A stretch of 64,000 nt of DNA from Hallerella sp. (GTDB lineage: Bacteria; Bacillota; Clostridia; Oscillospirales; Oscillospiraceae): contig CAVFCI010000001.1 in NCBI GenBank assembly GCA_963620985.1, positions 26,093 through 90,092 on the forward strand, read 5' to 3'. Positions 19,097 to 34,935 of this stretch are shown one piece after another. Each line of letters begins with the position of its first letter. The first letter of the stretch is position 1. The position numbers were made by a program, and so were the translations under genes. The notes under the pieces were generated by a model, which saw only the letters and a list, made by a program, of their open reading frames with translations, was not told the DNA's origin and searched no databases.

Positions 19097-20652
19097 GCTT
19101 TACATATCCAAACGAAAATAAGCCTGCCCTCGAGCATATCACGATGGACATTCCCGAGGGCGGGATAACTCTAATATGCGGTGCGAGCGGCAGCGGAAAG
19201 AGCACGCTCCTGCGCAGGCTGAAAAGCTGCCTTGCAGATCACGGCAGGGCAGAGGGGGAGCTGCTGTTTTTAGGCAGAGCCCTGAACGATGTGCCGGAGG
19301 CGGAGCAGGCGCGGCGCATAGGCTTCGTGTTCCAGCATCCGGACGATCAGATAGTGACCGACAAGGTCTTTCACGAGCTCGCCTTCGGACCGGAAAGCCT
19401 CGGCTGGGATCAGAGAAAAATGCGCCTTGCCGTCGCCGAGATGGCAAGCTATTTCGGCCTTTCCGAGCTTTTCGACAAGAACGTCGCCGAGCTCTCAGGC
19501 GGCCAGAAGCAGCTCGTGAACCTCGCCTCTGCCGCTGTCCTGCGGCCTGACGTGCTCGTCCTTGACGAGCCGACGAGTCAGCTCGACCCCATTGCCGCGG
19601 CGGATTTTCTGGCGACTGTGCGCAAATTGAACGAGGATCTCGGCCTGACCGTCATACTCACCGAGCACAGGCTCGAGGAGGCACTGCCGATGGCGGATAT
19701 GCTCGCCGTTCTGGAAAACGGCAGGCTCATTGCCTGTGATGCGCCGCAAAAAGCAGCGATGCAGATAAGAGACAGCGCGGTATTCTCCTCAATGCCCGCT
19801 GCGGTGAAGATATTTGCCGCCCTCGGCGGCGAGGGCGGCGCGCCGCTCACGGTGGGGCAGGGCAGGGCGTTTATCGCCTCGCGCATGCACGATAAGGTTG
19901 ACATAATACAAAAGCCCGCCCATGGGCGCGGCTCACCGGCGGTCGAGCTGAAAAGCTGCTGGTTCAGGTACGAAAAAAACGCGCCCGACGTTCTGCGCGG
20001 CCTTGAGCTTAAGCTGTACGCGGGCGAGATATGCGCTCTGCTCGGCGGCAACGGCTCGGGCAAGAGCACGAGCGTCGGCATCCTCTCCGGCAGGCTGAAG
20101 CCGTATCGCGGCAAGGTGAAGGGCAGCGGCGTTCGCATTGCGGCGCTGCCGCAGGATCCGCGTGAGCTGTTCGTAAAGGACAGGGTGTCAGACGAGCTGC
20201 GCGAGATGGGAGCCGGCGAAGCGGAGCTTGCGCAGCTCGTGCAGTTCCTTGAGCTTGAAGCGCTTCTTGAGCGCCACCCCTTTGACATATCGGGCGGCGA
20301 GCAGCAGCGTCTCGCACTCGGAAAGCTGCTGCTGATACATCCCGATGTGCTGCTGCTCGACGAGCCGACAAAGGGCATGGACGGGCAGCTCAAGCAGCGC
20401 TTCGGCGAGCTTCTGACGAAGCTGCGCGATGAGGGCAAGGCCGTGCTTCTGGTAAGCCACGATATTGAATTCTGCGCACGCTATGCCGGCCGCTGCGCCC
20501 TGCTTTTCAGGGGCGAGATCGTGACGGAGAGCGCGCCGCGCGAATTTTTTTCCGGCAATTTCTTTTATACGACAGCCGCCGCGAAGCTCAGCCGCGGCCT
20601 CATAAACGGAACGGTTCTCTGCGAGGAGGTGATCGAGTGCTTGAAGAAGTGA
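19069..20652 (+). CDS. ECF transporter ATPase, fused duplicated ABC domains (EcfA-EcfA')
   Basis: Two sets of Walker A (GASGSGKST, GGNGSGKST), signature (LSGGQKQ, ISGGEQQ) and Walker B (LVLDEPTS, LLLDEPTK) motifs. Confidence 0.9.
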   Translation: MAAFEIRDLSFTYPNENKPALEHITMDIPEGGITLICGASGSGKSTLLRRLKSCLADHGRAEGELLFLGRALNDVPEAEQARRIGFVFQHPDDQIVTDKVFHELAFGPESLGWDQRKMRLAVAEMASYFGLSELFDKNVAELSGGQKQLVNLASAAVLRPDVLVLDEPTSQLDPIAAADFLATVRKLNEDLGLTVILTEHRLEEALPMADMLAVLENGRLIACDAPQKAAMQIRDSAVFSSMPAAVKIFAALGGEGGAPLTVGQGRAFIASRMHDKVDIIQKPAHGRGSPAVELKSCWFRYEKNAPDVLRGLELKLYAGEICALLGGNGSGKSTSVGILSGRLKPYRGKVKGSGVRIAALPQDPRELFVKDRVSDELREMGAGEAELAQLVQFLELEALLERHPFDISGGEQQRLALGKLLLIHPDVLLLDEPTKGMDGQLKQRFGELLTKLRDEGKAVLLVSHDIEFCARYAGRCALLFRGEIVTESAPREFFSGNFFYTTAAAKLSRGLINGTVLCEEVIECLKK

Positions 20653-21338
20653 AGCATAAGCGCATTGCGATCGCCGTTGCGGTGCTCGTGCTGTCTGCGG
20701 CAATAATAGCCGTCGAAACATATCTGTGGAACAACCGCAAGTATTACCTGACCTCGCTTATCATCATACTGCTTGCCATGCTGCCGTTTTTCGCCCGCTT
20801 CGAGGGGCGCAGGCCGCAGGTGCGTGAGCTCGTGCTGCTCGCGGTGATGACGGCCTTCGCCGTCGCGGGGCGTGCGGCGTTTTACTGGGCACCGCAGCTC
20901 AAGCCCGTGTGCGCGATAGTGATCTTAACGGCTGCGGCCTTTAACGCCGAGGCGGGATTTATAACCGGTGCTGCGTCCGGCCTCATATCCAATATGTTCT
21001 TCGGACAGGGACCGTGGACACCATGGCAGATGCTCGGCTTCGGACTCGTCGGCTTTTTTGCCGGAGTGCTGTTTTCCGGCAGGGAGGTGAAAACGGCGCC
21101 GCTCCTGCTCTACGGCTTTTTCTCGGTGCTCATCATTTACGGTATCCTGCTGGACACGGGCTCGCTTCTCATGTATTCGCAGGACGTGAGCATAGCCGCG
21201 CTTACGGCAATGTACGCATCGGGCTTTTCCTTTAACCTTGTCCACGCAGCCGGCACGGTGCTGTTCCTGCTCCTGCTGAAGGGACCTGTGCTGTCAAAGC
21301 TGCGGCGCATAAAAATAAAATACGGGATGATGATTTGA
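20637..21338 (+). CDS. ECF transporter substrate-specific (S) component, B12-type by context
   Basis: 233-aa protein with 6 TM helices. GTG start 8 nt after a GAGGAGG RBS. Last gene of the riboswitch-controlled cluster. Substrate is inferred from context only. Confidence 0.55.
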   Translation: MLEEVKHKRIAIAVAVLVLSAAIIAVETYLWNNRKYYLTSLIIILLAMLPFFARFEGRRPQVRELVLLAVMTAFAVAGRAAFYWAPQLKPVCAIVILTAAAFNAEAGFITGAASGLISNMFFGQGPWTPWQMLGFGLVGFFAGVLFSGREVKTAPLLLYGFFSVLIIYGILLDTGSLLMYSQDVSIAALTAMYASGFSFNLVHAAGTVLFLLLLKGPVLSKLRRIKIKYGMMI

Positions 21339-22463: not shown

Positions 22464-22673
22464 ATGGTAAAGGTAACCATCAATGAGAACCTGTGCAAGG
22501 GCTGCGGTCTCTGTGCAAGAGCGTGCCCCAAGGGTTGCATTGAACTTTCCAAGGCAAAAATCAACGCAAAAGGCTATCACCCGGCAGAGGTTGTAAAACC
22601 TGAAGAGTGCATCGGCTGCGCATCCTGCGCACGCACATGCCCCGACGTGGTAATCCACATCGAGAAGGATTAA
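22464..22673 (+). CDS. 2-oxoacid:ferredoxin oxidoreductase delta subunit (2x[4Fe-4S] ferredoxin)
   Basis: Two cysteine clusters: CKGCGLCARACP and CIGCASCARTCP. Confidence 0.85.
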   Translation: MVKVTINENLCKGCGLCARACPKGCIELSKAKINAKGYHPAEVVKPEECIGCASCARTCPDVVIHIEKD

Positions 22674-22686
22674 GGAGGAAATTATA

Positions 22687-23772
22687 ATGGCAAAAACTCT
22701 TATGAAGGGTAGCGAAGCTATTGCAGAGGCAGCCATCAGAGCCGGCGCTCGTTATTTCTTCGGCTATCCCATCACCCCGCAGACCGAGATTCCTGAATAC
22801 ATGTCTGCACGTATGTTTGATCCCGACGTAAACGGCTGCTTCCTGCAGGCTGAGTCCGAGGTCGCAGCTATCAACATGATCTACGGTGCAGCCGGTACCG
22901 GCGCACGCGCCATCACTTCCTCCTCCAGCCCCGGCATCTCCCTGAAGCAGGAGGGTATCTCCTACTGCGCAGGCGCAATGCTTCCCTGCGTTATCCTGAA
23001 CGTAATGCGCGGCGGCCCCGGCCTCGGCAACATTCAGGCCTCTCAGGGCGACTACTTCCAGGCTGTCAAGGGCGGCGGCAACGGTGACTACCACCTGCTG
23101 ACCTACGCACCCTCCTCCGTTCAGGAAGCAGTTGACATCATGATGTTCGCATACGACAAGGCAGAGCAGTACCGCATCCCCGTGCTGTTCATCGCAGACG
23201 GCATCATCGCTCAGATGATGGAGCCTGTTGAGATGCCCGATATGGTCGATTACAAGATCGATCCCGAGAAGAAGCCCTGGGCATGCACCGGCTGGAAGCC
23301 CGGCGACGATCCTGCAAAGCGCGGCGTCATCAACTCCATTTACATCGACACCGAGTCTCTGTCCGTACATAACGCAGAGCTTCAGGCAATGTACGCTGAG
23401 GTCACCAAGAACGAGAAGATGTGGGAAAACTACAATCTCGAAGGCGCAGAGTACATCATCACCGCATTCGGCACTGTCGCACGTATTGCAAAGTCTGCTA
23501 TTGATCAGCTCAAGGCAGAGGGTATCAACGTCGGTCTGGTACGTCCAATCACCGTATGGCCGTTCCCGTACGAGGCCATTGCGGAAGCAGTCAATGCTGA
23601 AGGCGTAAAGGCAGTTCTCGACGTAGAGCTGAACGAAGGCCAGATGCTCGAGGACGTTAAGCTTGCTGTCAACGGCGCAAAGCCCATTGATTTCTTCGGT
23701 CACTGCGGCTCCCAGATGCCCACCACCGACGAGATCGTTGCAAAGATCAAGAGCATGAAGGAGGGTAAATAA
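22687..23772 (+). CDS. 2-oxoacid:ferredoxin oxidoreductase alpha subunit (KorA/VorB type)
   Basis: N-terminus MKGSEAIAEAAIRAGARYFFGYPITPQTEI typical of OFOR alpha subunits. Substrate is not resolvable from sequence alone. Confidence 0.85.
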   Translation: MAKTLMKGSEAIAEAAIRAGARYFFGYPITPQTEIPEYMSARMFDPDVNGCFLQAESEVAAINMIYGAAGTGARAITSSSSPGISLKQEGISYCAGAMLPCVILNVMRGGPGLGNIQASQGDYFQAVKGGGNGDYHLLTYAPSSVQEAVDIMMFAYDKAEQYRIPVLFIADGIIAQMMEPVEMPDMVDYKIDPEKKPWACTGWKPGDDPAKRGVINSIYIDTESLSVHNAELQAMYAEVTKNEKMWENYNLEGAEYIITAFGTVARIAKSAIDQLKAEGINVGLVRPITVWPFPYEAIAEAVNAEGVKAVLDVELNEGQMLEDVKLAVNGAKPIDFFGHCGSQMPTTDEIVAKIKSMKEGK

Positions 23773-24534
23773 ATGTCCGTAGTATTTGAGAGAACTAAAC
23801 TCCTTACCGACAAGACTTTCCATTACTGCCCCGGCTGCAACCACGGCATCATCCATCGCCTGGTAGCAGAGTCCATCGAGGAGCTCGAAAAGGAAGGCGT
23901 TATCGAAGAAGGTAAGGTCATCGGCGTAGCACCTGTCGGCTGCTCCGTATTTGCATATGATTACTTTAACTGCGATATGTACGAAGCCGCACACGGCCGT
24001 GCACCCGCAGTCGCAACCGGCGCAAAGCGCGTTGTCGGCAAGGATACCCTCGTATTCACCTATCAGGGCGACGGCGACCTTGCTTCCATCGGTACCGCAG
24101 AGATCGTCCACGCTGCACACCGCGGCGAGCACATCTGCACCATTTTCGTCAACAATGCCATTTACGGCATGACCGGCGGCCAGATGGCTCCTACCACCCT
24201 CGTTGGTCAGAAGACCACCACCTCCCCCAAGGGTCGTGACGAGGCATGGTGCGGCGCACCTATCCGCGTTGCTGAGATGCTCTCGACCATTCCCGGATCT
24301 TACTACATTGAGCGCTGCGCTGTCAACACCAACGCAAACATCATGAAGACCAAGAAGGCCATCAAGAAGGCATTCACCTATCAGATGCAGGGCAAGGGCT
24401 TCTGCCTGGTAGAGGTTCTTTCCACCTGCCCCACCAACTGGGGTCTCAGCCCGATCGAGGCTATGAAGTGGCTCGAAGAGAATATGATTCCTTACTATCC
24501 TCTCGGCGTTAAGAAAGACAAGGAGGCCGAATAA
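23773..24534 (+). CDS. 2-oxoacid:ferredoxin oxidoreductase beta subunit (TPP-binding)
   Basis: CPGCNHG cysteine motif and the TPP motif [11 protein letters not shown]...[11 protein letters not shown]. Confidence 0.85.
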
Positions 24535-24535
24535 T

Positions 24536-25078
24536 ATGAAAAAAGAGTTTATATTCGCCGGTTTCGGCGGTCAGGGCATGCTCCTGATCGGTAAGTTCCT
24601 TGCAATGGCTTGCATGCTCGACGGCAAGCACGTCTCCTGGCTGCCTTCCTACGGCCCTGAGATGCGCGGCGGTACCGCAAACTGCTCGGTCATCGTCTCC
24701 GACGATCCCGTTGCTTCTCCTCTGGTCGATATGGCTGATGTCGTTGTCGCCATGAACCGTCCTTCTCTGGACAAGTTCGAGGCACACGTCAAGCCCGGCG
24801 GCGTTCTGGTCATCAACAGCTCCCTGATCGACCGCAAGGCAGAGCGCGACGACATTCAGGTCGTTTACTGCGACGCAAACCGCATCGCAGAGGAAGTCGG
24901 CAACCCCAAGGGCGCAAACGTCGCTATCCTTGGCGCACTGCTGGCAAAGGCTCCCGTCGTTGACGACGAGAAGATGAGCGAGGCTATCCGCATCGAGCTC
25001 GGCGAGCGCAAGGCAAAGTTCCTGCCCGGCAACATGAAGGCTCTTCAGGCCGGCAAGGACGACGCTGCAAAGCAGTAA
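24536..25078 (+). CDS. 2-oxoacid:ferredoxin oxidoreductase gamma subunit
   Basis: FAGFGGQGMLLIGK motif typical of OFOR gamma subunits. Confidence 0.85.
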   Translation: MKKEFIFAGFGGQGMLLIGKFLAMACMLDGKHVSWLPSYGPEMRGGTANCSVIVSDDPVASPLVDMADVVVAMNRPSLDKFEAHVKPGGVLVINSSLIDRKAERDDIQVVYCDANRIAEEVGNPKGANVAILGALLAKAPVVDDEKMSEAIRIELGERKAKFLPGNMKALQAGKDDAAKQ

Positions 25079-25100: not shown

Positions 25101-25141
25101 AAAAAAACAGGTACAGTCTTTTGGCTGTACCTGTTTTTTGT
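25101..25141. terminator. Bidirectional rho-independent terminator
   Basis: AAAAAAACAGGTACAG...CTGTACCTGTTTTTT between convergent genes. Confidence 0.7.
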
Positions 25142-25159: not shown

Positions 25160-26335
25160 TCAGAATGTCAGCTCATCCACTGTCGGGATAAGGTCGATAA
25201 GCTGCCGGCGGTAATACGCGATAAGCTCCTCGCGTCTCGGCTCGTTGCGTCGTATCGTGCGGCGCAGCAGACGCATATAGCCGATGAGCTTTGCCTTGTC
25301 CTCAACCTCCTTGAGCCTTTTCTCGTCATCCGTTTCGAGATACATGGCAAGCGCCCTGTGCCAGAACTCCATGCCGACCTCGTAGGGGATGCCGATGAAG
25401 CGCTCCATCACCGAATGGTCAAGCTCCGCAAAGCCGCCATAGGCGTTGAACATGGAGCCGAGCTCGAATATGGGATGCCCCATGCAGAGGGTGTCCATGT
25501 CGATAAGCAGCGCCTCGCCGTCACGCACCATGAGGTTGTTAGTGTGATAGTCGCCGTGCATCATCGTGTTCTGCTCTGGAACGGCCTGCACCATATCGTA
25601 CAGCCTGCTGCCGAGCTCTGCGGGCAGATGCTCGCGGTCAAATGCCGCCCAGCCGAGTGCGACCTGCTTCATATCCGGCAGCTCGCCGGGCTTGAGCACC
25701 GTCGAGTGTATCTGCCTGAGCATGTCCACATAGTATTTAAGCGGCTTTTCCAGATGCTCGGGGTCATTTTTTATGAGCTCTGACAGGGAGACGGCCTCCA
25801 GAAGCTCCATGACCGTGCCGTAGCTTTCGCCGATGCGCACAACGTCATAGGGGATAGCTGTGTTGATGCCGAGAACCAGCGCCTTTCTGGCCAGCTCACG
25901 CTCGCGCTGTATCTCCGGCAGAGCGTTGGGATTAAAATACAGCTTTATGATCGTTTCGGGGTCGTAGCGGTAGACAGCGCCGTTTGAGCCCTTGCCGATA
26001 AGCGCGCAGCCCTCGACAGAGAGGCGGCGGTACGCCTTTTTGACCGTCATCATTTCGGTGAAGCCGGTCATATCCAGAACGTCGTATACCTCGGACGAGA
26101 CGTTTATGACCGCAAGCTCCGGTGCTCCCTTGCGCAGACGCAGCAGTATGCGCAGACCGGCGCTCGATATGTACTCGAGTTTTTCTGCGTCTATAACGAC
26201 ATCAGCTTCCGGCGCCGTACTGCGCGCGGCAGTCAGCTGCTTTTCAGCCTCCGCTGCGTTCGATGCGTCTATGCGCCCGCTCAGACACGCGGTCAGCACG
26301 CCGTTGTTTATATGATATGTAAGCAGCTCAGACAT
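25160..26335 (-). CDS. STAS domain fused to an APH/choline-kinase-like phosphotransferase domain
   Basis: The N-terminal ~105 aa are STAS (IDAEKLEYISSAGLRILL, VYDVLDMTGF). Then a kinase-like fold: G-loop IGKGSNGAVY, catalytic HGDYHTNNLMV, metal-binding LIDMD. Confidence 0.75.
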   Translation of the reverse strand: MSELLTYHINNGVLTACLSGRIDASNAAEAEKQLTAARSTAPEADVVIDAEKLEYISSAGLRILLRLRKGAPELAVINVSSEVYDVLDMTGFTEMMTVKKAYRRLSVEGCALIGKGSNGAVYRYDPETIIKLYFNPNALPEIQRERELARKALVLGINTAIPYDVVRIGESYGTVMELLEAVSLSELIKNDPEHLEKPLKYYVDMLRQIHSTVLKPGELPDMKQVALGWAAFDREHLPAELGSRLYDMVQAVPEQNTMMHGDYHTNNLMVRDGEALLIDMDTLCMGHPIFELGSMFNAYGGFAELDHSVMERFIGIPYEVGMEFWHRALAMYLETDDEKRLKEVEDKAKLIGYMRLLRRTIRRNEPRREELIAYYRRQLIDLIPTVDELTF

Positions 26336-26338
26336 TTT

Positions 26339-26905
26339 TTATACCTCCGCAAAAATCGTTCTGATCAGTCCGTCAAGCTCCTGCCATGCCGATGTGTCGG
26401 AAAGCTCCCGTATGCTCTCGGCAATGCTGCGGTAGTACCACGCCTGCTCGGCGGGATCCTTCTGGTTAAAGTCCTGCCATACGGCATCGCCTATCTCCCG
26501 CCAGACATGATATATAGAGCGCAGGTTTGCGAGCTTATCGCCGAGATAGATTATCTTTATCTCCCTGTCCTGCGTTTCGGCGAGAATGCGCAGCGATTCC
26601 GATTTCCGCGCCTTCCATGTGCTCTGCGCGGGGAGAGGACGCATTTTGTCCTCCGTTTCTGATGCGACGAGCTCCGCGACTCTTTTGCCGAAGCGCTCCT
26701 CAAGCTCACGCGGGCTGATGCCGGCATCCTCCACAACGTCGTGGAGCGCCGCCGCCGCGATGACCTCCTGATTGCTCGTCACCGTGCCGACTATCACGGC
26801 TGCCTCCAAGGGATGCAGGATATAGGGGCAATCCGACTGCTTACGGCGCATTCCGTCATGAGCCTCTGCCGCAAAGATGATGGCTCTTGTTGCAAGCTCC
26901 GTCAT
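26339..26905 (-). CDS. HD-domain small alarmone hydrolase (RelA/SpoT hydrolase-only, Mesh1-like)
   Basis: AAEAHDGMRRKQSDCPYILHPLEAA and AAALHDVVEDA match the (p)ppGpp hydrolase HD signature. No synthetase domain (188 aa). Confidence 0.75.
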   Translation of the reverse strand: MTELATRAIIFAAEAHDGMRRKQSDCPYILHPLEAAVIVGTVTSNQEVIAAAALHDVVEDAGISPRELEERFGKRVAELVASETEDKMRPLPAQSTWKARKSESLRILAETQDREIKIIYLGDKLANLRSIYHVWREIGDAVWQDFNQKDPAEQAWYYRSIAESIRELSDTSAWQELDGLIRTIFAEV

Positions 26906-27198
26906 TCGATCACCAGTATATCGGCAAAGCCGGTCATTTCAAGAACATCCATAACCTCGGCGCAGACGCCGGTGAGCTTCATGGAGCCTATGCGGTTCAT
27001 CTTCTTCTGCGCAACGAGCAGGACACGCAGCCCAGCGGACGAGACGTAGGTCAGCTCCTTCATGTCAAGGATCAGAACGCTCACCTCCGACGGCAGTGCG
27101 TTTATCACGCCCTCAAGCTCCGGCGAGGTAATGGTGTCGAGCCGGCCTTCAAGGTGGAGGGTCATCGTTTCGTTTTTCTGTTCGGGATTGATCGTCAT
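26902..27198 (-). CDS. STAS-domain anti-sigma-factor-antagonist-like protein (RsbV/SpoIIAA family)
   Basis: 98-aa ORF with LDMKELTYVSSAGLRVLL (conserved phosphorylatable Ser context) and VMDVLEMTGF. Confidence 0.85.
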   Translation of the reverse strand: MTINPEQKNETMTLHLEGRLDTITSPELEGVINALPSEVSVLILDMKELTYVSSAGLRVLLVAQKKMNRIGSMKLTGVCAEVMDVLEMTGFADILVIE

Positions 27199-29372
27199 TT
27201 GTTCAGACTCCTTTCCAGCTTCTTAGTCATCGTGAGTATATTTTCATCGTTTTCACGGGTATATGTGACGGTGTCCATCGTCTGCTTTACGATGTATATG
27301 CCCAGACCTCCGACCTCGCGCTGCTCGGCACTGAGAGTAATGTCGGGATCGTCCTTTGCCAGCGGGTCAAAGGCTATGCCCGCGTCCGAAACGGTAAAGG
27401 TCGCGGTGTCGGATGCGTCGTCTATGCTTACGGCAAGCCTTGCCGTGCCCTCGCCGTCGGGATATGCATAGTTGGCGATGTTCACGAAGACCTCCTCTAT
27501 GGCGACGCTCACGGCTATCTGGAGCTTCATCGGGCAGCCGGCCTTTTCGAGCTCGCCCTCGACAAAGCCGAGAACCTCGGGGACGTTTTCCTCCTTTGCC
27601 TCGAAGCAGCGCTCGACGGCCTCCGCCGCGCCATGGAAATCCATGAGCAGCATGGTTATATCGTCAAACTGCGGCGCATCTCCGGCAAAGTCCTGAAGCG
27701 AGAGCCTGAGCTCCTTGAGCATGGCCTCGGTGTCGCAGCGTGAGTGGCTGTTCAGGAAGCCTCTGAGCCGCTCCTCGCCGTAAAGCCGCTGCTGCGTATC
27801 CGTCGTTTCCGTAACGCCGTCGGTGTACAGGAACAGCCGGTCGCCGGGGCTTACGCTAAGATGGCTCTGCCGGTATTTTACGTTTTCCATACCGGCCAGA
27901 ACAAGGCCGCTTCTCTCGCGCAGATATTCAAATTCACCGTCCGCTCTCTTGAGAAGCGGGGGATTGTGTCCGGCGTTTACATATGTAAGCTCGCCGGTCT
28001 TTATATCGAGAACGCCCATCCACGCCGTCACGAACAGACCCGCGTCGTTTCCGTCGCACAGCAGCCTGTTTACGATCGTAAACACCTCCGAGGGCTCGTT
28101 GCCCATCTGGGTATAGTTTTTTATGAGCGTTTTCGTTATGACCATGAACAGCGCCGCCGGAACGCCCTTGCCCGATACGTCGGCAACGACGAGGGCGAGC
28201 CTGTTCTCTCCGATCATGAAAAAGTCGTAGAAGTCGCCGCCGACCTCCTTGGCCGGATGCATGAGCGCGTACAGCTCAAACTCGCAGTGCTCGGGGAAGG
28301 GAGGGAAGATGCACGGCAGCATGTGCGCCTGAATGTCCGAGGCAAGCTTGAGCTCGGCGTTTATGCGCTCCTTTTCCGCCATGACGCTTTGCAGGTTATC
28401 CACATATTTTCCGAGATCGCGGATCATGGACATGTACGAGCGCGCAAGCTCGCCGACCTCGGTCGAGTCCTTTGCGTAGACCTCGCACTCGCTGAGCAGC
28501 TTGTTGCGCTGAGAGTCAGTCGAGCGCCCTGAGTAGTAGCTTCCGGCGATCTTGGCAAGCTTTTCGATGGGGCGGGATATTTTCTTCTCCGTAAAGCGCA
28601 TGAAGCCTATGGAAAGCGCAAAATAGGTGTTCATCGCAAGCATTTCAAAGAGATATATCCTGCCCAGAACGCTGATGTTGCCGGAGCCGTATTTGTCGGT
28701 CAGGTAGACGGCAGTGCCCACGAGCACACAGATGCACAGGCCGGTGACGAGGGTGTTGAGTATCATCCGCTCGTTCATGGAAAAATGCACGGGCTTGGTT
28801 TCGCCGCCGTCCTTGAGGTTCTCCATATGCATCTGCAAAAGGCTTCCCAGTATCATGAGCGGAGCGCCGAAGAGCAGACCGGAGTCAAAGCTGTTTACGA
28901 AAAGATACAGATTATCAAACGAGATGATATCCGAAACATTGTACGCATGGTTGAGGATGCTCGTAAACAGAACCGTCAGCAGCGCGTTCAGTCCCAGCAG
29001 CAGGCAGAACTTTAGTATCCTCGACACGCTGTCGAGCCTGAACTCCTTGCCGCCGCGCTCGCGGTTTATCTTCTTCCAGAAGAAATACGCGCACATGGCA
29101 TAGAGTATCTGCAAAACGCTGTTTATCGCCGCGTACAGAAGCTCATAGCCCGCGCTCAGGTCGCAGACAAGGTTTCCCGCCGCGCAGCCGAGCGCCGCCG
29201 GCCAGCCGAAGATCATGCCGAGCACCGGCGTGAGCGCCGCCGTCGGGCGCATCTGCGTAAGCTCAGATGCTGCCGCCCAGAGCTTAAAGGGCGCAGTCAG
29301 CAGTATAAACAGCAGCAGGTTCATTGCGAATACGAACAGCGCCGCGCGTTTTTTCGTGAGTTTCATTTTCAT
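27195..29372 (-). CDS. Polytopic membrane sensor fused to a PP2C (SpoIIE/RsbU) phosphatase and an RsbW-type GHKL serine kinase domain
   Basis: About 8 TM helices in aa 1-270. PP2C motifs EVGGDFYDFF, VVADVSGKGVPAALFM, LFLYTDGVTE, FDDITMLLMDF. C-terminal HATPase motifs EEVFVNIANYAY, VSDAGIAFDP, VGGLGIYIV. Confidence 0.8.
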   Translation of the reverse strand: MKMKLTKKRAALFVFAMNLLLFILLTAPFKLWAAASELTQMRPTAALTPVLGMIFGWPAALGCAAGNLVCDLSAGYELLYAAINSVLQILYAMCAYFFWKKINRERGGKEFRLDSVSRILKFCLLLGLNALLTVLFTSILNHAYNVSDIISFDNLYLFVNSFDSGLLFGAPLMILGSLLQMHMENLKDGGETKPVHFSMNERMILNTLVTGLCICVLVGTAVYLTDKYGSGNISVLGRIYLFEMLAMNTYFALSIGFMRFTEKKISRPIEKLAKIAGSYYSGRSTDSQRNKLLSECEVYAKDSTEVGELARSYMSMIRDLGKYVDNLQSVMAEKERINAELKLASDIQAHMLPCIFPPFPEHCEFELYALMHPAKEVGGDFYDFFMIGENRLALVVADVSGKGVPAALFMVITKTLIKNYTQMGNEPSEVFTIVNRLLCDGNDAGLFVTAWMGVLDIKTGELTYVNAGHNPPLLKRADGEFEYLRERSGLVLAGMENVKYRQSHLSVSPGDRLFLYTDGVTETTDTQQRLYGEERLRGFLNSHSRCDTEAMLKELRLSLQDFAGDAPQFDDITMLLMDFHGAAEAVERCFEAKEENVPEVLGFVEGELEKAGCPMKLQIAVSVAIEEVFVNIANYAYPDGEGTARLAVSIDDASDTATFTVSDAGIAFDPLAKDDPDITLSAEQREVGGLGIYIVKQTMDTVTYTRENDENILTMTKKLERSLNK

Positions 29373-29418
29373 TGAGGGAGTACCTCCTTCGATCGTCTGC
29401 GGAAGCAGGAACTTGGTT

Positions 29419-30636
29419 TTACTTATTATTCTTCTTCTGCTTGGCCAGAGGCACAGCGGGGAACATGCTCAGGCTCTTTGTCATTGCGACGGTAAACAGG
29501 ATAACACCGCCGGCAGAGAAAAGCTGCACGCCCCAGAGCGTGAGGTTTATGCCGACAAGATCTATCATGATGCCGCCGGTGAAGCTCGCTATCAGATATC
29601 CGAGCGTCAGTGCACTGCCTACGAGGGACTGACCCTTGAGAAATTCACTCTCGGGCAGAGTGTGGGCTACAAAGCGAACGCCCGCCGGAACATAAATGGC
29701 ATAGCCGGCAAATTGCAGGAGCTCCGCGGCATACAGCAGGTAAACATTCGGCGCGAGCATGATGAAAAAGTTCTTGGCCGCCCACATCCAGCCTGCAAAT
29801 ATAAGAAGCTTTCGGTTTCCGATATTGTCGGCGACGCGGCGGTACAGAAGCATCGCCGGAAGCTCCGTCATTGCGGAGATGAACATCGCAACGCCGAGAT
29901 TCGAGCTGTCGCCGCCTATGCGCAGTATGATCTGAATAAGATAGGTATCCATGAAGCCGTTCGCCGTGGCAAGGCAGAGCACACCGGCAAAGAAAATATA
30001 AAACTGCGGATATTCGCTCATCAATATTTTCTTTTCCTTGGGCGTTACGCTGCCGGGATGACGCTCGGCAAGATTCGGCGCGTTGAAGGCGAGGACTGCA
30101 AAGCACAGCAGGAGGCAGGGGATGATGTACAGCCCGGGCAGGATGTTTGTCGTGAACTTCTGTATCAGCAGGCCGGTGGCAAGGCTCGTGAGCGAAAAGG
30201 CCATCGAGCCGCAGCCGCGTGCCGCGCCGAAATTGATCCTTGTGCCCTGCTCATGATAGCCGCGGTACAGGGAGTTTACAGACGACTGCATCGATGAGTT
30301 GAGCGAGTACACGAGAATGTATACTATGCAGAAGCCGAGGCCGCTGAGCGGGAGCAGCAGGAGCGCCGCCGACAGCAGCACTATAAGCACATGCACGGCG
30401 AACATTGCCCGCCCCAGCTGCACGCCTGTGCGCTGGACAAAGGAGGCGACAAGTATCTGAAAGCCGGCTGAGCCGAGATTGCCGAAGCCGAGGATGATGC
30501 CTATCCTGCCGCTGCTGAAGCCGCGGTCGAGCAGATATGTCGATGCAAAGCAGGCTATCAGCGCCAGCGAGCAGAAATACAGTGCCTGAATGACCGCATA
30601 AAACACGGTCGCGTTCCTCTTGTTTACGGATATCAT
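29419..30636 (-). CDS. MFS transporter
   Basis: 405-aa ORF with about 12 TM helices and an MFS-like loop motif (DRGFSSGRIG). Confidence 0.75.
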   Translation of the reverse strand: MISVNKRNATVFYAVIQALYFCSLALIACFASTYLLDRGFSSGRIGIILGFGNLGSAGFQILVASFVQRTGVQLGRAMFAVHVLIVLLSAALLLLPLSGLGFCIVYILVYSLNSSMQSSVNSLYRGYHEQGTRINFGAARGCGSMAFSLTSLATGLLIQKFTTNILPGLYIIPCLLLCFAVLAFNAPNLAERHPGSVTPKEKKILMSEYPQFYIFFAGVLCLATANGFMDTYLIQIILRIGGDSSNLGVAMFISAMTELPAMLLYRRVADNIGNRKLLIFAGWMWAAKNFFIMLAPNVYLLYAAELLQFAGYAIYVPAGVRFVAHTLPESEFLKGQSLVGSALTLGYLIASFTGGIMIDLVGINLTLWGVQLFSAGGVILFTVAMTKSLSMFPAVPLAKQKKNNK

Positions 30637-30651
30637 GTTTGTCTTACCCTC

Positions 30652-31557
30652 TTATGCACGGAAAAAGTCAAGGCAGCGCTGCCTGTAATCGGGAGCCTCG
30701 TCGTATACGCCGTGGCCGTAGCCCTCATCGTAAAGATAAAGCTCGCAGCCGAGAGCCTCGGCTATCTGCTCCGAGCCCTCCGCCGTTACGACACCGTCGC
30801 CCTCCGAGCCTATAACGAGCACGGGGCATTTTATGCCAGAGAGCTCATCATAGCAGTCGAAGGTCCTGCATGCCTCGGCAAGGATGATAAAGCGCTCGTA
30901 CTCCTTGTCGCTTATGCCTGCGTTCATGGATATGAGCGTATCGCGGTAGCTCTCAAGCGTTGCCTCGGAGTAAACATTGTCAACAAAGCTTTCCAGCAGC
31001 TCTGTCTCCTGCTTTGCCTCGGCGAGGCTTATCCACTCGTCGACGATTCCGTTAAAGCAGTCGTTCGGCTTTGCCAGCGTCGAGCCGAGGATCATTTTGT
31101 GCACGAGCTCGGGAAAGTCGATGGCGAGATACTGCGCTATCATGCCGCCCTGAGACGCGCCGAAAACGTCGGCGTTTTCAATGCCGAGCGCCTTCATTGC
31201 CGCAGCTGTGTCGGCTGCCATGTTGCGCACGGTGTAGCCCTCGGAGATATCCTTGGCTCTGTCGAAAAGATACACGGTGTATTCCTCGGAAAAGTCCTTG
31301 TACGCCTCCGCTATGGCATCAGCCGAGCCCATCACACTGTGGACAGACAGGCCGGGCAGTATGACAAAGGTCTTTTCGCCGCTGCCGAATACGATATAAT
31401 CCATTTCCATACCTCCGGAAGAAACTGTTTTTACGCTTGCAGCCGCTGCCGGAGCGGCGGTCGGCTCCGGCGTGGGCTCGGGCTGACCGCTGCTCTGACA
31501 GGCGGTGATGCCGAGCAGCATCAAGGCTGCAATAAGTGCAGAGATAAATCTTTTCAT
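30652..31557 (-). CDS. Alpha/beta hydrolase lipoprotein
   Basis: Lipobox LLGITAC, a Pro/Ala-rich linker and the nucleophile elbow GASQGG. Confidence 0.75.
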   Translation of the reverse strand: MKRFISALIAALMLLGITACQSSGQPEPTPEPTAAPAAAASVKTVSSGGMEMDYIVFGSGEKTFVILPGLSVHSVMGSADAIAEAYKDFSEEYTVYLFDRAKDISEGYTVRNMAADTAAAMKALGIENADVFGASQGGMIAQYLAIDFPELVHKMILGSTLAKPNDCFNGIVDEWISLAEAKQETELLESFVDNVYSEATLESYRDTLISMNAGISDKEYERFIILAEACRTFDCYDELSGIKCPVLVIGSEGDGVVTAEGSEQIAEALGCELYLYDEGYGHGVYDEAPDYRQRCLDFFRA

Positions 31558-31567
31558 TGTATGCTCC

Positions 31568-33304
31568 TTACTCGGCAGCTCCGCGCTTTTTGACGATGAT
31601 GATAACGACTGCCGCTATAACGACCACTGCCGCAGCCACGATGGCGATCGTCTGAGAGGAAACAGAGGTGGAATCAGAGCTGCTGCTGTTATCCGCAGCC
31701 TCGGGCAGCTTACCGTAGGCGGAGGCATCCAGCGTTACGGTCAGAGGATCGACCTGCTTGAGCTCGTCTATGACCTCGTGGGTCTCGGGGTTTCTTCCGT
31801 TTTTCATGGTGTTGCTGTTTTTGCTCATGTACCAGCGAACATCGTTGAGAAGCTGACCGGCATCGTCAAAGGCCTGCTCCTGCACCGAGTTGCAGTAATC
31901 GGTTATGTACTGCTTTGCCGCCGCACTGTCGCCGAGGGAGGCGGCGGTGCTGAGCACGGTCTGCATGCTCTCGGTCATGAGCGTTTCGGCCTGATGCCAG
32001 TATGCGCGCACGGGCTGACCGTAGATCTTGTATGCGCTTTTCTCAACGCCGAGGGTGTTGAGCTCCTTGAAGCGGTAGTAGGGGTAAAGCTGAGTGTCGA
32101 ATATACCGGCCTCCTCAGCCGTCTGACTGCGGGCGTAGGGGGCACTGATGCTCGTCGCGGCATTAGATATAGGAACGAATACGCCGTACAGCGCAGGACC
32201 GGTGCTCTCCCAAGTCACGCAGGACATGTCCGCGGGAAGGTCGGGGTATATCTGCGCAATATGCACGCTCAGCGCGGTGTCGGTTCCGATAACGCGCATA
32301 TCCGTGCGGCCAGTCTCGTCGGGGCTGTATTCCGTGCCCTCGTAGCGGTTGCGCATGATCTCCATAACGTCGAGCAGCGAGATCTTCTCATCTGGCGCAA
32401 AGCACAGGGGATAGAGCGCGGACTTGTCGTAATCGCCGTAGGCGGAGGGAGCCATGAGCTGATGCGCTATCCACGTTCTCATGTGGGAGTAGTTCGTAAC
32501 GACCTCGTCGCCGGAGTAGGTAGCCAGCAGGTTGAGCTCGCCGTCCTCGCCGTACACTGCAAAGCCCTTGTCCTTTGCAAGGCTCTCAAGCTCCTTGGAG
32601 AGTATGCAGTCGGAGTAGTCCGAAACATATTCAAGCGAAAACTCGTTTCCGAAAGCGCATACCTTGTCATCGGGCAGCTTTACAGCCGCGTACTGGTGAC
32701 CGCTGTACATCTCGATGTACCATGCCTCCTTCTGGTCGGCGATAAGAGCGATATTGACCTCGCTGCTGCCGTAGGTGTCGATAAGAGACAGCAGGACCTC
32801 AACGCCCTCTCTGGCTGTGGCGCTCTGGCAGGTCACAAGATCAACGGCGGTGAACTCGGACAGGCCGTGCTCTATAAGAGGATCGGCCTCAAGCGCTGCG
32901 GCGTTTGAAAACGAGGTGATGGACATTATCATAGCAACGCCGTATTCGTTCGTGCAGACCGTCGCGTCGCTGCCGAGGCCGTTTGCAGCCGTAGCGCTTT
33001 CCATCCACGGGGTAGAGGTGTAGCGATAGGTGGTGTCGGGCAGCTCCGCGAACACCGTCTTGTCGTTATCGACGGGCATCGTTCTTCCCGATTTGTTCTC
33101 GACGCGCTCGGTAATGGTCACATAGTTTGCCCAAACGTCCTGATAGTCATTGGATTTGGCCATGATCACCGTGCCGTCGGCGCTGGCCTTCGAGCCTACA
33201 TACACCGCAGTGCAGGCGTAAGCTTGAGCTGCTCCGGCGCATACGAAGGTAAACGCCAAAGCAAGTGCGCATATCATGCGCATAAGTCCGTGTCTTTTTT
33301 TCAT
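31568..33304 (-). CDS. C69-family dipeptidase, secreted, with C-terminal membrane anchor
   Basis: Signal peptide, then ACTAVYVGSKASADGTVIMAKSNDY (N-terminal Cys nucleophile context of peptidase C69). Ser-rich stalk, a hydrophobic helix and KKRG at the C-terminus. Confidence 0.75.
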   Translation of the reverse strand: MKKRHGLMRMICALALAFTFVCAGAAQAYACTAVYVGSKASADGTVIMAKSNDYQDVWANYVTITERVENKSGRTMPVDNDKTVFAELPDTTYRYTSTPWMESATAANGLGSDATVCTNEYGVAMIMSITSFSNAAALEADPLIEHGLSEFTAVDLVTCQSATAREGVEVLLSLIDTYGSSEVNIALIADQKEAWYIEMYSGHQYAAVKLPDDKVCAFGNEFSLEYVSDYSDCILSKELESLAKDKGFAVYGEDGELNLLATYSGDEVVTNYSHMRTWIAHQLMAPSAYGDYDKSALYPLCFAPDEKISLLDVMEIMRNRYEGTEYSPDETGRTDMRVIGTDTALSVHIAQIYPDLPADMSCVTWESTGPALYGVFVPISNAATSISAPYARSQTAEEAGIFDTQLYPYYRFKELNTLGVEKSAYKIYGQPVRAYWHQAETLMTESMQTVLSTAASLGDSAAAKQYITDYCNSVQEQAFDDAGQLLNDVRWYMSKNSNTMKNGRNPETHEVIDELKQVDPLTVTLDASAYGKLPEAADNSSSSDSTSVSSQTIAIVAAAVVVIAAVVIIIVKKRGAAE

Positions 33305-33348: not shown

Positions 33349-33978
33349 TCAGCCGAGGCTCATACCGTTTGCCAGAACATATGCGGTAAAGATACCGGCA
33401 AGTATAAACGCAAGCAGAATGGATACGAGGCGGTATTTTTTCTCCGTCTGGATATAAAAGCTCATTATAAATATGGATGCATAGCAGACTATGCCGCTCA
33501 GAAGGTGATGCGGGAAGCTGTGAAATGCTCGGTAGAAGTAGGAAACGCCCATAAAAGCCTGTATCGTGTTTCCCAGACCGAGTATAACGGCTCCGAGCAG
33601 GCTCTGCTTCTTGCATTGATACGCTATAAAGCCGCCAGGCAGGGTGAGGAAGGTCGCGGGAAGCCAGATGCTGCTGTAGTAATACCATGCCTTATCGACC
33701 GTGAGCGATCCGAACAGTATCTGAACTATATATACGAGCGGCTGGCTTATAAGGAAGAACACAAAGCATTTGAGCATTGCCTCCCAGCCCTTGCTGCAGT
33801 TGACGACTACAATGACGGCGAAAATGACCCACCACTCGTAGCTTATGCCTATATCCTGAAACGAGGTCTCGTCAAAAATGTCCACAAGCATCACAAGGCC
33901 GGTGTAAACGCCCGCGGCGACTGCAAAAAGTATCACCGTGAGCCAGCTCATTTTCAGGCTTCCGTACAGCTTTTTCAT
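33349..33978 (-). CDS. Hypothetical integral membrane protein (about 6 TM)
   Basis: 209-aa hydrophobic ORF. No motif recognised. Confidence 0.5.
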   Translation of the reverse strand: MKKLYGSLKMSWLTVILFAVAAGVYTGLVMLVDIFDETSFQDIGISYEWWVIFAVIVVVNCSKGWEAMLKCFVFFLISQPLVYIVQILFGSLTVDKAWYYYSSIWLPATFLTLPGGFIAYQCKKQSLLGAVILGLGNTIQAFMGVSYFYRAFHSFPHHLLSGIVCYASIFIMSFYIQTEKKYRLVSILLAFILAGIFTAYVLANGMSLG

Positions 33979-34392: not shown

Positions 34393-34935
34393 ATGAGCTA
34401 TATTGAGAAGAGAATAGACAGTGAGCAAATGTACAGCGGCGTTATTGTGAACGTCCGTCTCGACCACGCAGAGCTTTGCGACGGAAGGATCGTCAAGCGC
34501 GAGGTCGTCGAGCATCCGGGCGGCGCAACGATATTGCCGCTTGACGACGAGGGCTATTGCTACTGCGTCCGTCAGTTCCGCTATCCTTATCAGAAGGAGC
34601 TCCTTGAAGCGCCTGCCGGCAAGCTTGAGCCCGGCGAGGATCCGATGGAATGCGCCGTGCGCGAGCTGTCCGAGGAGACGGGCTTTACCGCCGATGAGAT
34701 CATAAGCCTCGGAGAGGACTACACCTCGCCCGGCTTTTCTACCGAAACGCTGCACATCTATCTCGCCCGCGGACTTCACAGAGGCGCTATGCACCTTGAC
34801 GACGGCGAGTTCCTGAGCGTAGAGCGTCACCATATCGATGAGCTGACAGAGCTTGTCATGGACGGTACGATAGCCGATGGCAAAACGGTAATTGCGGTCT
34901 TGAAGGCAAAACGCCTTTTGGAAAGCGAAAAATAG
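34393..34935 (+). CDS. NUDIX hydrolase (ADP-ribose pyrophosphatase-like)
   Basis: Nudix box [22 protein letters not shown]. Confidence 0.85.

Follow-up and report, generated by a model that had tools for sequence, protein, structure and literature searches.

A putative sigma-less partner-switching cassette with links to alarmone metabolism in a Hallerella sp. contig

Domain make-up of the four-gene cassette

The 64,000-nucleotide stretch of Hallerella sp. contig CAVFCI010000001.1 analysed here (the window) carries a cassette of four tightly coupled genes, all on the minus strand, designated open reading frames (ORFs) 1 to 4 (Table 1). ORF1 joins a membrane sensor to a PP2C/SpoIIE phosphatase and an RsbW/SpoIIAB-type serine kinase; ORF2 is a single-domain STAS protein; ORF3 is a predicted small alarmone hydrolase (SAH) of the HD_4 type; and ORF4 is a second STAS domain fused to an APH-like phosphotransferase. 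We read this locus, with a confidence somewhat better than even, as a sigma-less partner-switching cassette with an enzymatic output tied to alarmone metabolism. A sequence-only reading of the same DNA had delimited the four genes. The coordinates and lengths it gave were recovered unchanged, as were its junctions (two overlaps of 4 nt each and one 3-nt gap). Profile searches, which it had named as a check and which covered Pfam and NCBIfam here, bear out every one of its domain calls.

The two antagonistic activities were proposed to reside on one membrane protein, and ORF1 indeed carries both catalytic domains with intact motifs (Pfam SpoIIE, E 1e-51; HATPase_c_2, E 2e-24). The phosphatase motifs GGDFYD (378), DVSGKG (398), TDG (517) and DD (570-571), and with them the PP2C metal-binding aspartates D380, D398, D518 and D570/D571, are invariant in 46 ORF1 homologs, as are the N, G1 and G2 boxes of the kinase (N631, D663/G665 and GGLG 688-691). 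The kinase matches the NCBIfam RsbW models at 1.6e-8 and 3.8e-7, far under their equivalog cut-offs, and its score against the SpoIIAB equivalog model is likewise far under the cut-off; on these scores, it is classed as a member of the RsbW/SpoIIAB superfamily and not as an ortholog. ORF1 also gives a partial match to SiaA (4.5e-19), and a protein 100% identical to it is held at NCBI.

The sensor part of ORF1 had been read as containing about eight transmembrane helices. This number requires correction, as the AlphaFold model of residues 1-290 (pLDDT 71) shows about seven long helices (residues 7-36, 48-73, 78-102, 116-143, 152-187, 199-228 and 235-279); only five membrane segments pass a strict hydropathy cut-off. 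The region bears a weak, sub-threshold similarity to QueT and ECF S-components (E 0.0014; 19.4 bits against a cut-off of 33.7), and precomputed PF06177/PF07155 matches are found on many ORF1 homologs. Foldseek comparison of the same model with the PDB returned nothing significant (best E 0.24, TM-score at most 0.27). An ECF riboflavin-type S-component gene with an ABC ATPase lies some 4 kb downstream of the module (window 20637-21338, plus strand), and at another locus (L086) an ECF transporter stands directly ahead of a fusion of HD_4, STAS and APH domains. The presence of ECF genes near such modules may be a coincidence, yet it deserves mention, given that the ORF1 sensor itself weakly resembles S-components.

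The association of phosphatase and kinase in one polypeptide is not constant. Variants of ORF1 of approximately 583 residues, which share about 75% identity with ORF1 across 80% of its length, have no C-terminal kinase domain (P0470, P0473-P0475, P0477 and P0479, among others), and in loci such as L025 the RsbW-type kinase is encoded by a separate small gene. It appears, therefore, that the phosphatase-kinase fusion has formed or split more than once.

The STAS domains of ORF2 and ORF4 are both recognized by Pfam (4e-14 and 2e-11, respectively) and both exceed the cut-off of the ant_ant_sig model TIGR00377. As had been claimed, they are paralogous (35% identity, E 2.5e-12). The serine context of ORF2, put forward as phosphorylatable, is strictly maintained: SSAGLR is present in 41 of 41 orthologs, and the pattern YxSSAGLRV is invariant. 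In ORF4, Ser58 is kept in 146 of 150 divergent representatives of the family and aligns to the first serine of the DSSG loop of SpoIIAA, which is Ser58, the phosphorylated residue of Bacillus subtilis SpoIIAA.

ORF3 was called a RelA/SpoT-type HD hydrolase devoid of a synthetase domain, and this assignment stands: its 188 residues hold a single HD_4 domain (4e-20) with a conserved HDVVED motif, and of the 687 positions of the spoT_relA model they match nothing beyond positions 1-123, the N-terminal hydrolase part. Inspection of the catalytic residues revealed the full RelA/SpoT hydrolase set (H31, H55, D56, E59, D60, D123, N127 and R21). N127 is invariant in a 15-sequence ortholog alignment, and the remaining seven are invariant in 59 orthologs and in 29 fusion proteins. 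In the enzyme RelH_Cg, the Mn2+ ligands are H34/H58/D59/D122, and E62/D63, N126 and R24 are residues that were mutated (PMC9293644); these match H31/H55/D56/D123, E59/D60, N127 and R21 of ORF3, respectively. The nearest solved structures are those of stand-alone SAHs (7qoe at 1.6e-26, 4yf1 and 7qoc), ahead of the Rel/SpoT hydrolase domains and Mesh1. Within this family, ORF3 belongs to a distinct clade marked by the motif GDKL[AS]N. Taken together, these features identify ORF3 as a probable SAH, with a predicted activity on (p)ppGpp/(p)ppApp. SAHs are generally small single-domain proteins (PMC3153485) whose regulation has been described as "still rather unclear" (PMC9293644), and neither PMC3153485 nor PMC7229694 mentions STAS or phosphotransferase partners for them.

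ORF4 proved to be, as previously read, a STAS domain fused to an APH-like fold (Pfam APH, 2e-17, residues 120-301), with the HGDxHxNN and IDMD motifs conserved. The β3 lysine K131, the αC glutamate E145, the HxDxxxxN loop (H260, D262 and N267) and the Mg-binding D279 are each kept in 139-147 of the 150 representatives. Its best AlphaFold model reaches a pLDDT of 91.9, and the top Foldseek matches are APH(2'') and APH(3') (probability 1.00, 12-18% identity, TM-score 0.35-0.56), with MTR kinase also close. The best NCBIfam match of the kinase domain is TIGR02172 (2.3e-29); since it reaches 102.8 bits against a cut-off of 228.2, and over the kinase domain only, ORF4 is related to this family but is not a member of it. 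The STAS-APH family itself comprises 675 clusters at 50% identity (E<=1e-30) and is common in Clostridia of the human and animal gut. Database names of its members are limited to "anti-sigma factor antagonist" or "phosphotransferase", and the ORF4 protein of the window is itself present in NCBI without a name.

The structural resemblance to aminoglycoside phosphotransferases leads to the question as to whether ORF4 could be a STAS-regulated drug or xenobiotic kinase, of the aminoglycoside or macrolide type, in a resistance locus with the MFS gene encoded nearby upstream. Weak NCBIfam matches to APH(6) and to a macrolide-binding ATPase point in the same direction. Yet these scores are far under the cut-offs of the resistance models (APH_6, 15.3 bits against 325; MABP-1, 15.1 bits against 800), and the identity to APHs is low, as given above. 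Members of the family are chromosomal, and none of 72,556 plasmids or 50,697 phages carries a relative over the full length. The conserved partner of ORF4 is an alarmone hydrolase (see below) and not a transporter: when 149 ORFs flanking the module at 51 loci with a PP2C-kinase protein were classified by Pfam (the flank census), only seven proved to be of the MFS type. A resistance role is, hence, highly improbable. Further members of the family bear an additional fused domain, namely the membrane domain of a Na+/H+ exchanger, a PHP phosphoesterase domain, an HD-CE domain or a YezG-like domain (P0234, P0130, P0187 and P0151), and in L089 and L091 the module is preceded by genes for SDF symporters; taken as a whole, these fusions and symporter genes hint at a link to transport.

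Conservation, fusions and sister operons

A survey of gene neighbourhoods, proposed earlier as a means of checking the cassette, was performed on 80 GTDB species with an ORF4 relative of 58-91% identity, in which the genes immediately upstream were classified. The counts rest on the 63 species or loci with at least 3.3 kb of sequence upstream of the ORF4 homolog. An ORF3-type HD_4 hydrolase lies directly upstream of the STAS-APH gene in 52 of these 63, a PP2C and RsbW-kinase protein is present upstream in 33, and all four genes are found in 27. The synteny of the four genes extends far past close relatives, to loci where the gene order is permuted or fusions occur. In L089 (54% identity) the order is STAS, PP2C-kinase, HD_4 and STAS-APH; at 50-55% identity, the module of L090 is embedded amid further partner-switch genes. 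Other arrangements are synthetase-hydrolase-APH-PP2C/kinase-STAS, PP2C/kinase-STAS-synthetase-hydrolase, and synthetase-hydrolase-PP2C/kinase-STAS-hydrolase-STAS-APH. In L072 and L076 the order is PP2C-kinase, hydrolase and STAS-APH; because the PP2C-kinase sensor directly precedes the pair and no free STAS is present, the STAS domain of ORF4 would itself be a partner of the phosphatase and kinase. Several metagenome-assembled genomes carry two paralogous modules (L010 and L078, L012 and L052, L019 and L047). The taxon labels of these contigs conflict with one another (loci at 88-91% identity to the window bear the names Escherichia coli, Collinsella or Bacteroidaceae) and were disregarded.

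Across these loci, sensor domains are exchanged (the seven-helix type of the window, 5TMR-LYT with HAMP, or dCache), while the PP2C-kinase-STAS-hydrolase-APH part is retained. Such variation ahead of a constant PP2C-kinase is what one would expect if a modular input served one shared output.

The reciprocal scan, in which ORF3 was the query against metagenomes, yielded a congruent picture. Thirteen of 21 genes for full-length hydrolases of the ORF3 clade (identity of 39% or higher) have an APH-like gene as their next downstream neighbour, which encodes a STAS-APH protein in five cases and a STAS-less APH of 276-310 residues in eight, and 12 of the 21 have PP2C/kinase genes in the locus. In contrast, no APH, STAS or RsbW-kinase gene lies near any of 59 more distant SAH or long RelA/SpoT homolog (RSH) matches; four of the 59 possess only a distant PP2C-like match, on the opposite strand and 2-3 kb away. 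The association with APH and partner-switch genes is therefore specific to the ORF3 clade. The STAS-less APH-like lineage, found directly after the hydrolase, is 22-30% identical to the ORF4 kinase domain, shows weak similarity to TCAD9, and occurs with dCache-PP2C-kinase sensors and free STAS genes (L096:4554-5384, L114:4506-5438, L101, L104, L105, L108, L110 and L111).

Genes for RelA_SpoT synthetases (Pfam 3e-17 and 3e-18) were found in the same operons at 15 loci, and one more lies 5 kb upstream of a fusion of the three domains (L084), giving 16 in total. In many cases the synthetase gene stands first in the operon. In L096, the order is synthetase, HD_4, APH, dCache-PP2C-kinase and STAS, with genes that overlap or abut. 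In the window-type loci L019, L020 and L067, an alpha/beta hydrolase is followed by a synthetase, a Rel-like HD_4 protein, a 5TMR-LYT-HAMP-PP2C-kinase, a STAS protein, an ORF3 ortholog and STAS-APH. This Rel-like protein, a second HD_4 paralog in each of the three loci, carries the motifs HDLLED and DRLHN and falls outside the ORF3 clade. The synthetases carry a C-terminal extension of approximately 150 residues (L019:2646-4288, L020, L067, L096:2538-4567 and nine similar metagenome loci). The occurrence of RelP/RelQ-like synthetases in sister operons makes the placement of the module in alarmone metabolism firmer than ORF3 alone does, and goes beyond what the sequence-only reading had proposed.

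Since SAHs serve as antitoxins of toxSAS systems (PMC7229694), a toxin-antitoxin or anti-phage defence module was also considered, in which the SAH would counteract a toxic alarmone synthetase or kinase. The sister loci contain pairs of a small alarmone synthetase (SAS) and an SAH with a 4-nt overlap (L019), and the HD-CE and YezG-like fusions of some family members would fit this scenario. However, the window holds no synthetase, so that no toxic SAS lies beside ORF3, and the synthetase of the sister loci is nearest to the housekeeping enzymes RelQ/RelP. Furthermore, the four ORFs have no PADLOC matches, and the chromosomal position of the module is stable from species to species, with no occurrence in the phage and plasmid collections. 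We consider a defence function very unlikely.

Natural fusions provide a second line of evidence for the linkage. Proteins combining HD_4, STAS and APH domains form at least 25 clusters at 90% identity and diverge to 49% identity; their HD part matches the whole of ORF3 at 37-48% identity. Proteins with HD_4 and APH but no STAS domain also exist (P0326 and P0378), and an RsbW-type kinase domain (HATPase_c_2) is fused to the N- or C-terminal end of STAS-APH in P0125, P0127, P0134, P0211 and P0350. The conserved core of the system is the hydrolase with the APH-like kinase, and the partner-switch genes represent a frequent, optional and modular input layer.

This core could be autonomous. The ORF3 hydrolase and the APH-like kinase would then act as opposing enzymes on one small molecule, in the manner of the synthetase and hydrolase halves of Rel: the kinase would produce a phosphorylated nucleotide or metabolite, which the hydrolase would clear. 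The STAS domain would be a ligand or nucleotide sensor, ORF1/ORF2 would be an optional modulator, and control would not lie chiefly in the phosphorylation of STAS by ORF1. Many genomes have hydrolase-APH pairs or HD_4-(STAS)-APH fusions with no partner-switch genes beside them, the kinase lacks a STAS domain both in the two HD_4-APH fusions and in the L096-type operons, and the active sites of hydrolase and kinase are intact across the family. The nearest folds to the ORF4 kinase, APH(2''), APH(3') and MTR kinase, are small-molecule kinases, and Mesh1-type SAHs hydrolyse NADPH as well, so that the hydrolase fold is not confined to ppGpp (PMC9765508). On the other hand, APH-fold enzymes move a single phosphate, whereas the known SAH substrates bear 3'-pyrophosphates; the recurrent linkage and fusion to RsbW-type kinases, PP2C and free STAS proteins indicates that the partner switch is more than incidental; and the RelP/RelQ-like synthetases of sister operons already supply a source of hydrolase substrate. 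An autonomous pair is a serious alternative, though the less probable one.

As regards transcription, the four genes probably make up the 3' portion of a longer run of co-directional genes forming one unit, since the upstream genes are separated by gaps of only 10-46 nt and no terminator-like site is present in the 46-nt gap between the MFS gene and ORF1. Seven genes are common to the window and to a relative locus with an 86% identical ORF4 homolog, in which the downstream side differs. Promoter-like matches were no more frequent than chance would give (9 found, 6.2 +- 2.4 expected), and they therefore do not mark a 5' end of the unit.

Table 1. Features of the cassette and of its upstream genes, in window coordinates
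Feature	Position	Strand	Basis
ORF1, membrane sensor + PP2C/SpoIIE phosphatase + RsbW/SpoIIAB-type GHKL serine kinase, 725 aa	27195..29372	-	Pfam, invariant motifs
ORF1 membrane sensor region, aa 7-279	28536..29354	-	AlphaFold model
ORF1 PP2C/SpoIIE phosphatase domain, aa 389-579	27636..28208	-	Pfam, invariant metal-binding Asp
ORF1 RsbW-type serine kinase domain, aa 590-717	27222..27605	-	Pfam, NCBIfam, conserved ATP-binding boxes
Ribosome-binding site GGAGG, 10 nt ahead of ORF1 ATG	29383..29387	-	Sequence reading
ORF2, single-domain STAS, 98 aa; predicted phospho-acceptor Ser54, codon 27037-27039	26902..27198	-	Pfam, NCBIfam, ortholog alignment
ORF3, predicted small alarmone hydrolase (RelH-like HD_4), 188 aa	26339..26905	-	Profiles, PDB matches, alignments
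ORF4, STAS (aa 9-100; Ser58 codon 26162-26164) + APH/choline-kinase-fold phosphotransferase (aa ~105-391), 391 aa	25160..26335	-	Pfam, NCBIfam, AlphaFold
Bidirectional intrinsic terminator, 17-bp stem, after ORF4	25102..25139	.	Sole convincing terminator
MFS transporter, directly upstream of ORF1	29419..30636	-	Co-directional, 46-nt gap to ORF1
Lipoprotein alpha/beta hydrolase (signal peptide, lipobox ITAC), upstream	30652..31557	-	Co-directional, 15-nt gap to next
C69 peptidase, upstream	31568..33304	-	Co-directional, 10-nt gap to next
209-aa ORF, upstream	33349..33978	-	Co-directional, 44-nt gap to next

The terminator is shared with a convergent 2-oxoacid:ferredoxin oxidoreductase operon (window 22464-25078, plus strand; ferredoxin, POR_N/PFOR_II, TPP_enzyme_C and POR gamma), the position of which is taken by arginine-biosynthesis genes in the locus with the 86% identical ORF4 homolog. 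A divergent NUDIX hydrolase gene (34393-34935, plus strand) lies upstream of the extended operon. In the flank census, the alpha/beta hydrolase was the only strongly recurrent neighbour (20 of the 149 flanking ORFs), with the MFS genes (seven) as the only other recurrent ones of note. The hydrolase was also noted at L009, L013, L017, L021, L027, L044, L052, L056, L066 and L019; depending on the genome, the gene that immediately follows it is an ORF1 ortholog or STAS-APH. It may be part of the system, for example by making the sensed ligand, or may merely reflect inherited synteny. Genes of the tyrosine-phosphatase family Y_phosphatase3 and of PrsW-type intramembrane proteases were each observed in four module flanks.

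Sigma factors and the proposed output

The proposal of an enzymatic rather than a transcriptional output predicts that a cognate sigma factor should not be a conserved partner of the kinase. Neither a sigma factor nor an HTH gene lies in or beside the operon, as was stated before, and none was found at approximately 17.1-39.6 kb of the window. No sigma factor is encoded within 10 kb on either side in the locus with the 86% identical ORF4 homolog, and Sigma70 is not among the recurrent families in the 149 flanking ORFs of the 51 loci. ORF1 and ORF2 do bear all the sequence hallmarks of the RsbU/RsbW/RsbV type, and an ordinary sigma-factor partner switch would be conceivable in which the sigma factor is encoded elsewhere and ORF3 and ORF4 are passengers or sigma-regulated genes. 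Besides the distribution of sigma genes just described, passenger genes do not explain the fusions of RsbW-type kinase or HD_4 to STAS-APH, and the kinase domain forms part of a membrane-bound polypeptide. We therefore regard this explanation as unlikely.

Several observations weigh against the cassette that we favour, or against parts of it. Our view is limited to 64 kb of the genome, so that a sigma factor may be unlinked, and the window contains no RelA_SpoT synthetase homolog. In 27 of the 80 loci, the hydrolase-APH pair or fusion is found by itself in unrelated surroundings, too far from any PP2C/RsbW gene to be linked with one, and much of the synteny among close relatives might stem from vertical descent accompanied by deletions. 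Even where pairs and fusions stand alone and no RsbW gene is near, Ser58 is conserved, and an ORF1-type kinase is therefore not the universal STAS kinase; the STAS domain may instead bind a nucleotide or be a phosphorylation target of the APH domain. Finally, only one of the five AlphaFold models of ORF4 is confident (pLDDT 91.9 against 75-80), which leaves the arrangement of the STAS and APH domains uncertain.

The proposal of an enzymatic output is nevertheless supported by the domains, the synteny, the fusions, the synthetases of sister operons and the lack of a linked sigma factor, and the three refuting conditions that were checked (missing catalytic residues, loss of synteny and a conserved sigma partner) all turned out in its favour. 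The partner switch is an optional layer and not the defining feature. In the sigma-less cassette as we envisage it, ORF1 would sense a membrane, extracytoplasmic or nutrient cue, which would shift the balance between its PP2C and RsbW-type activities. This balance would set the phosphorylation of Ser54 of ORF2 and/or Ser58 of ORF4, and the two STAS domains would compete for binding to the kinase domain of ORF1. Depending on its state, the STAS domain of ORF4 would in turn switch the APH-like kinase, which would work as a unit with the ORF3 hydrolase, so that the cue would result in a changed (p)ppGpp/(p)ppApp-type pool instead of the release of a sigma factor. We infer in this manner the phosphorylation pairs, the direction of control and the substrates of the hydrolase and of the APH-like kinase. 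The logic of fusion and adjacency supports three pairings: STAS with the APH-like kinase, this kinase with the hydrolase, and the hydrolase with the product of a RelP/RelQ-like synthetase.

A bolder extension, which we put forward as improbable on present evidence, is that the APH-like kinase and the ORF3-clade HD hydrolase are the writer and eraser of a new phosphorylated nucleotide signal, or of a kinase-modified alarmone or alarmone precursor. The STAS domain would be the built-in switch of the two enzymes, and partner-switch sensors of the seven-helix, 5TMR-LYT and dCache types would feed cues into this node in gut Firmicutes.

The favoured cassette provides a testable hypothesis of how small alarmone hydrolases and synthetases may be controlled after translation, namely by a serine-phosphorylation partner switch with interchangeable membrane sensors. 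The switch would act on a STAS domain that is either joined to the pair of alarmone hydrolase and APH-like kinase or encoded next to it. If true, the outputs of partner switching would widen to nucleotide second-messenger metabolism. It also draws attention to a family of APH-fold kinases with a probable signalling role instead of a resistance role, and to a gene kit that is widespread in gut Firmicutes.

Comparison with known systems

The sequence-only reading knew of no described module that couples partner switching to alarmone degradation or to an APH-type kinase. Our search of the open-access literature, likewise, found no published account of such partner-switched alarmone enzymes, of the STAS-APH family, or of kinase-linked or kinase-fused SAHs, though subscription journals may hold one.

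The RsbU/RsbV/RsbW and SpoIIE/SpoIIAA/SpoIIAB systems of Bacillus resemble the window module in three components: the PP2C phosphatase, the serine kinase of the GHKL type and a STAS protein whose phospho-acceptor serine occupies the corresponding loop. The module differs from them in that it has no linked sigma factor, carries phosphatase and kinase on one membrane protein, possesses two STAS domains of which one is fused to an enzyme, and has a predicted small alarmone hydrolase and an APH-like kinase as conserved partners.

The SiaABCD system of Pseudomonas aeruginosa is a partner-switch-like module with a diguanylate cyclase output. Further modules of this kind are the HenR/STAS/glycosyltransferase system of Anabaena, a partner-switch-like phosphorylation module with an enzyme output (PMC13555669), and CapK/CapS, with a repressor/VapC output (PMC13373217). 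Together with SypE/SypA (below), they establish that sigma-less partner switches with an enzymatic or otherwise non-sigma output are already known. SiaABCD, HenR and CapK/CapS resemble the window module in this respect; unlike it, they have no RSH-family hydrolase or synthetase and no APH-fold kinase, and their STAS protein is never fused to the output enzyme.

Fused phosphatase-kinase regulators are known in SypE/SypA of Vibrio fischeri and Rv1364c of Mycobacterium tuberculosis (PMC10120452, PMC8256260). Both systems hold an RsbW-type kinase and a PP2C domain in one polypeptide that acts on STAS, as predicted for ORF1. The output of SypE/SypA involves no known sigma factor, as proposed for the window module, but SypE has a central receiver domain and the order kinase-REC-PP2C. 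Rv1364c, in turn, is cytoplasmic and carries a PAS domain and its own STAS domain. In comparison with both, the window module has a polytopic membrane sensor ahead of the PP2C-kinase part and putative nucleotide-signalling enzymes as downstream partners.

Among the hydrolases, the RelH-type SAHs (RelH_Cg, 7QOC/7QOD; RelH_Ll, 7QOE; Lmo0812, 4YF1; PMC9293644) correspond to ORF3 in their single-domain HD_4 fold, length and catalytic set (1.6e-26 to 3.6e-17). They carry DRLHN or DKLHN where the ORF3 clade has GDKL[AS]N, and the ORF3 clade, unlike them, is linked or fused to an APH-like kinase and partner-switch genes. The long RSH enzymes (Rel/SpoT) offer an architectural parallel, as their HD hydrolase lies N-terminal to a phosphotransfer catalytic domain, as it does in the HD_4-(STAS)-APH fusions; this order suggests a reciprocal regulation of the two activities. 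The fusions differ in that the second domain has an APH/protein-kinase-like fold and not the RelA_SpoT nucleotidyltransferase fold, and in that STAS is present in place of TGS/ACT. Similarly, ORF4 shares the bilobal kinase fold and the catalytic motifs of APH(2'')/APH(3') and TIGR02172, from which it is set apart by the added N-terminal STAS domain, low identity and the lack of a resistance-gene context. The parts of the cassette (PP2C, RsbW-type kinase, STAS, RelH-like SAH and APH fold) thus all come from known families, and it is their combination that is newly noted here.

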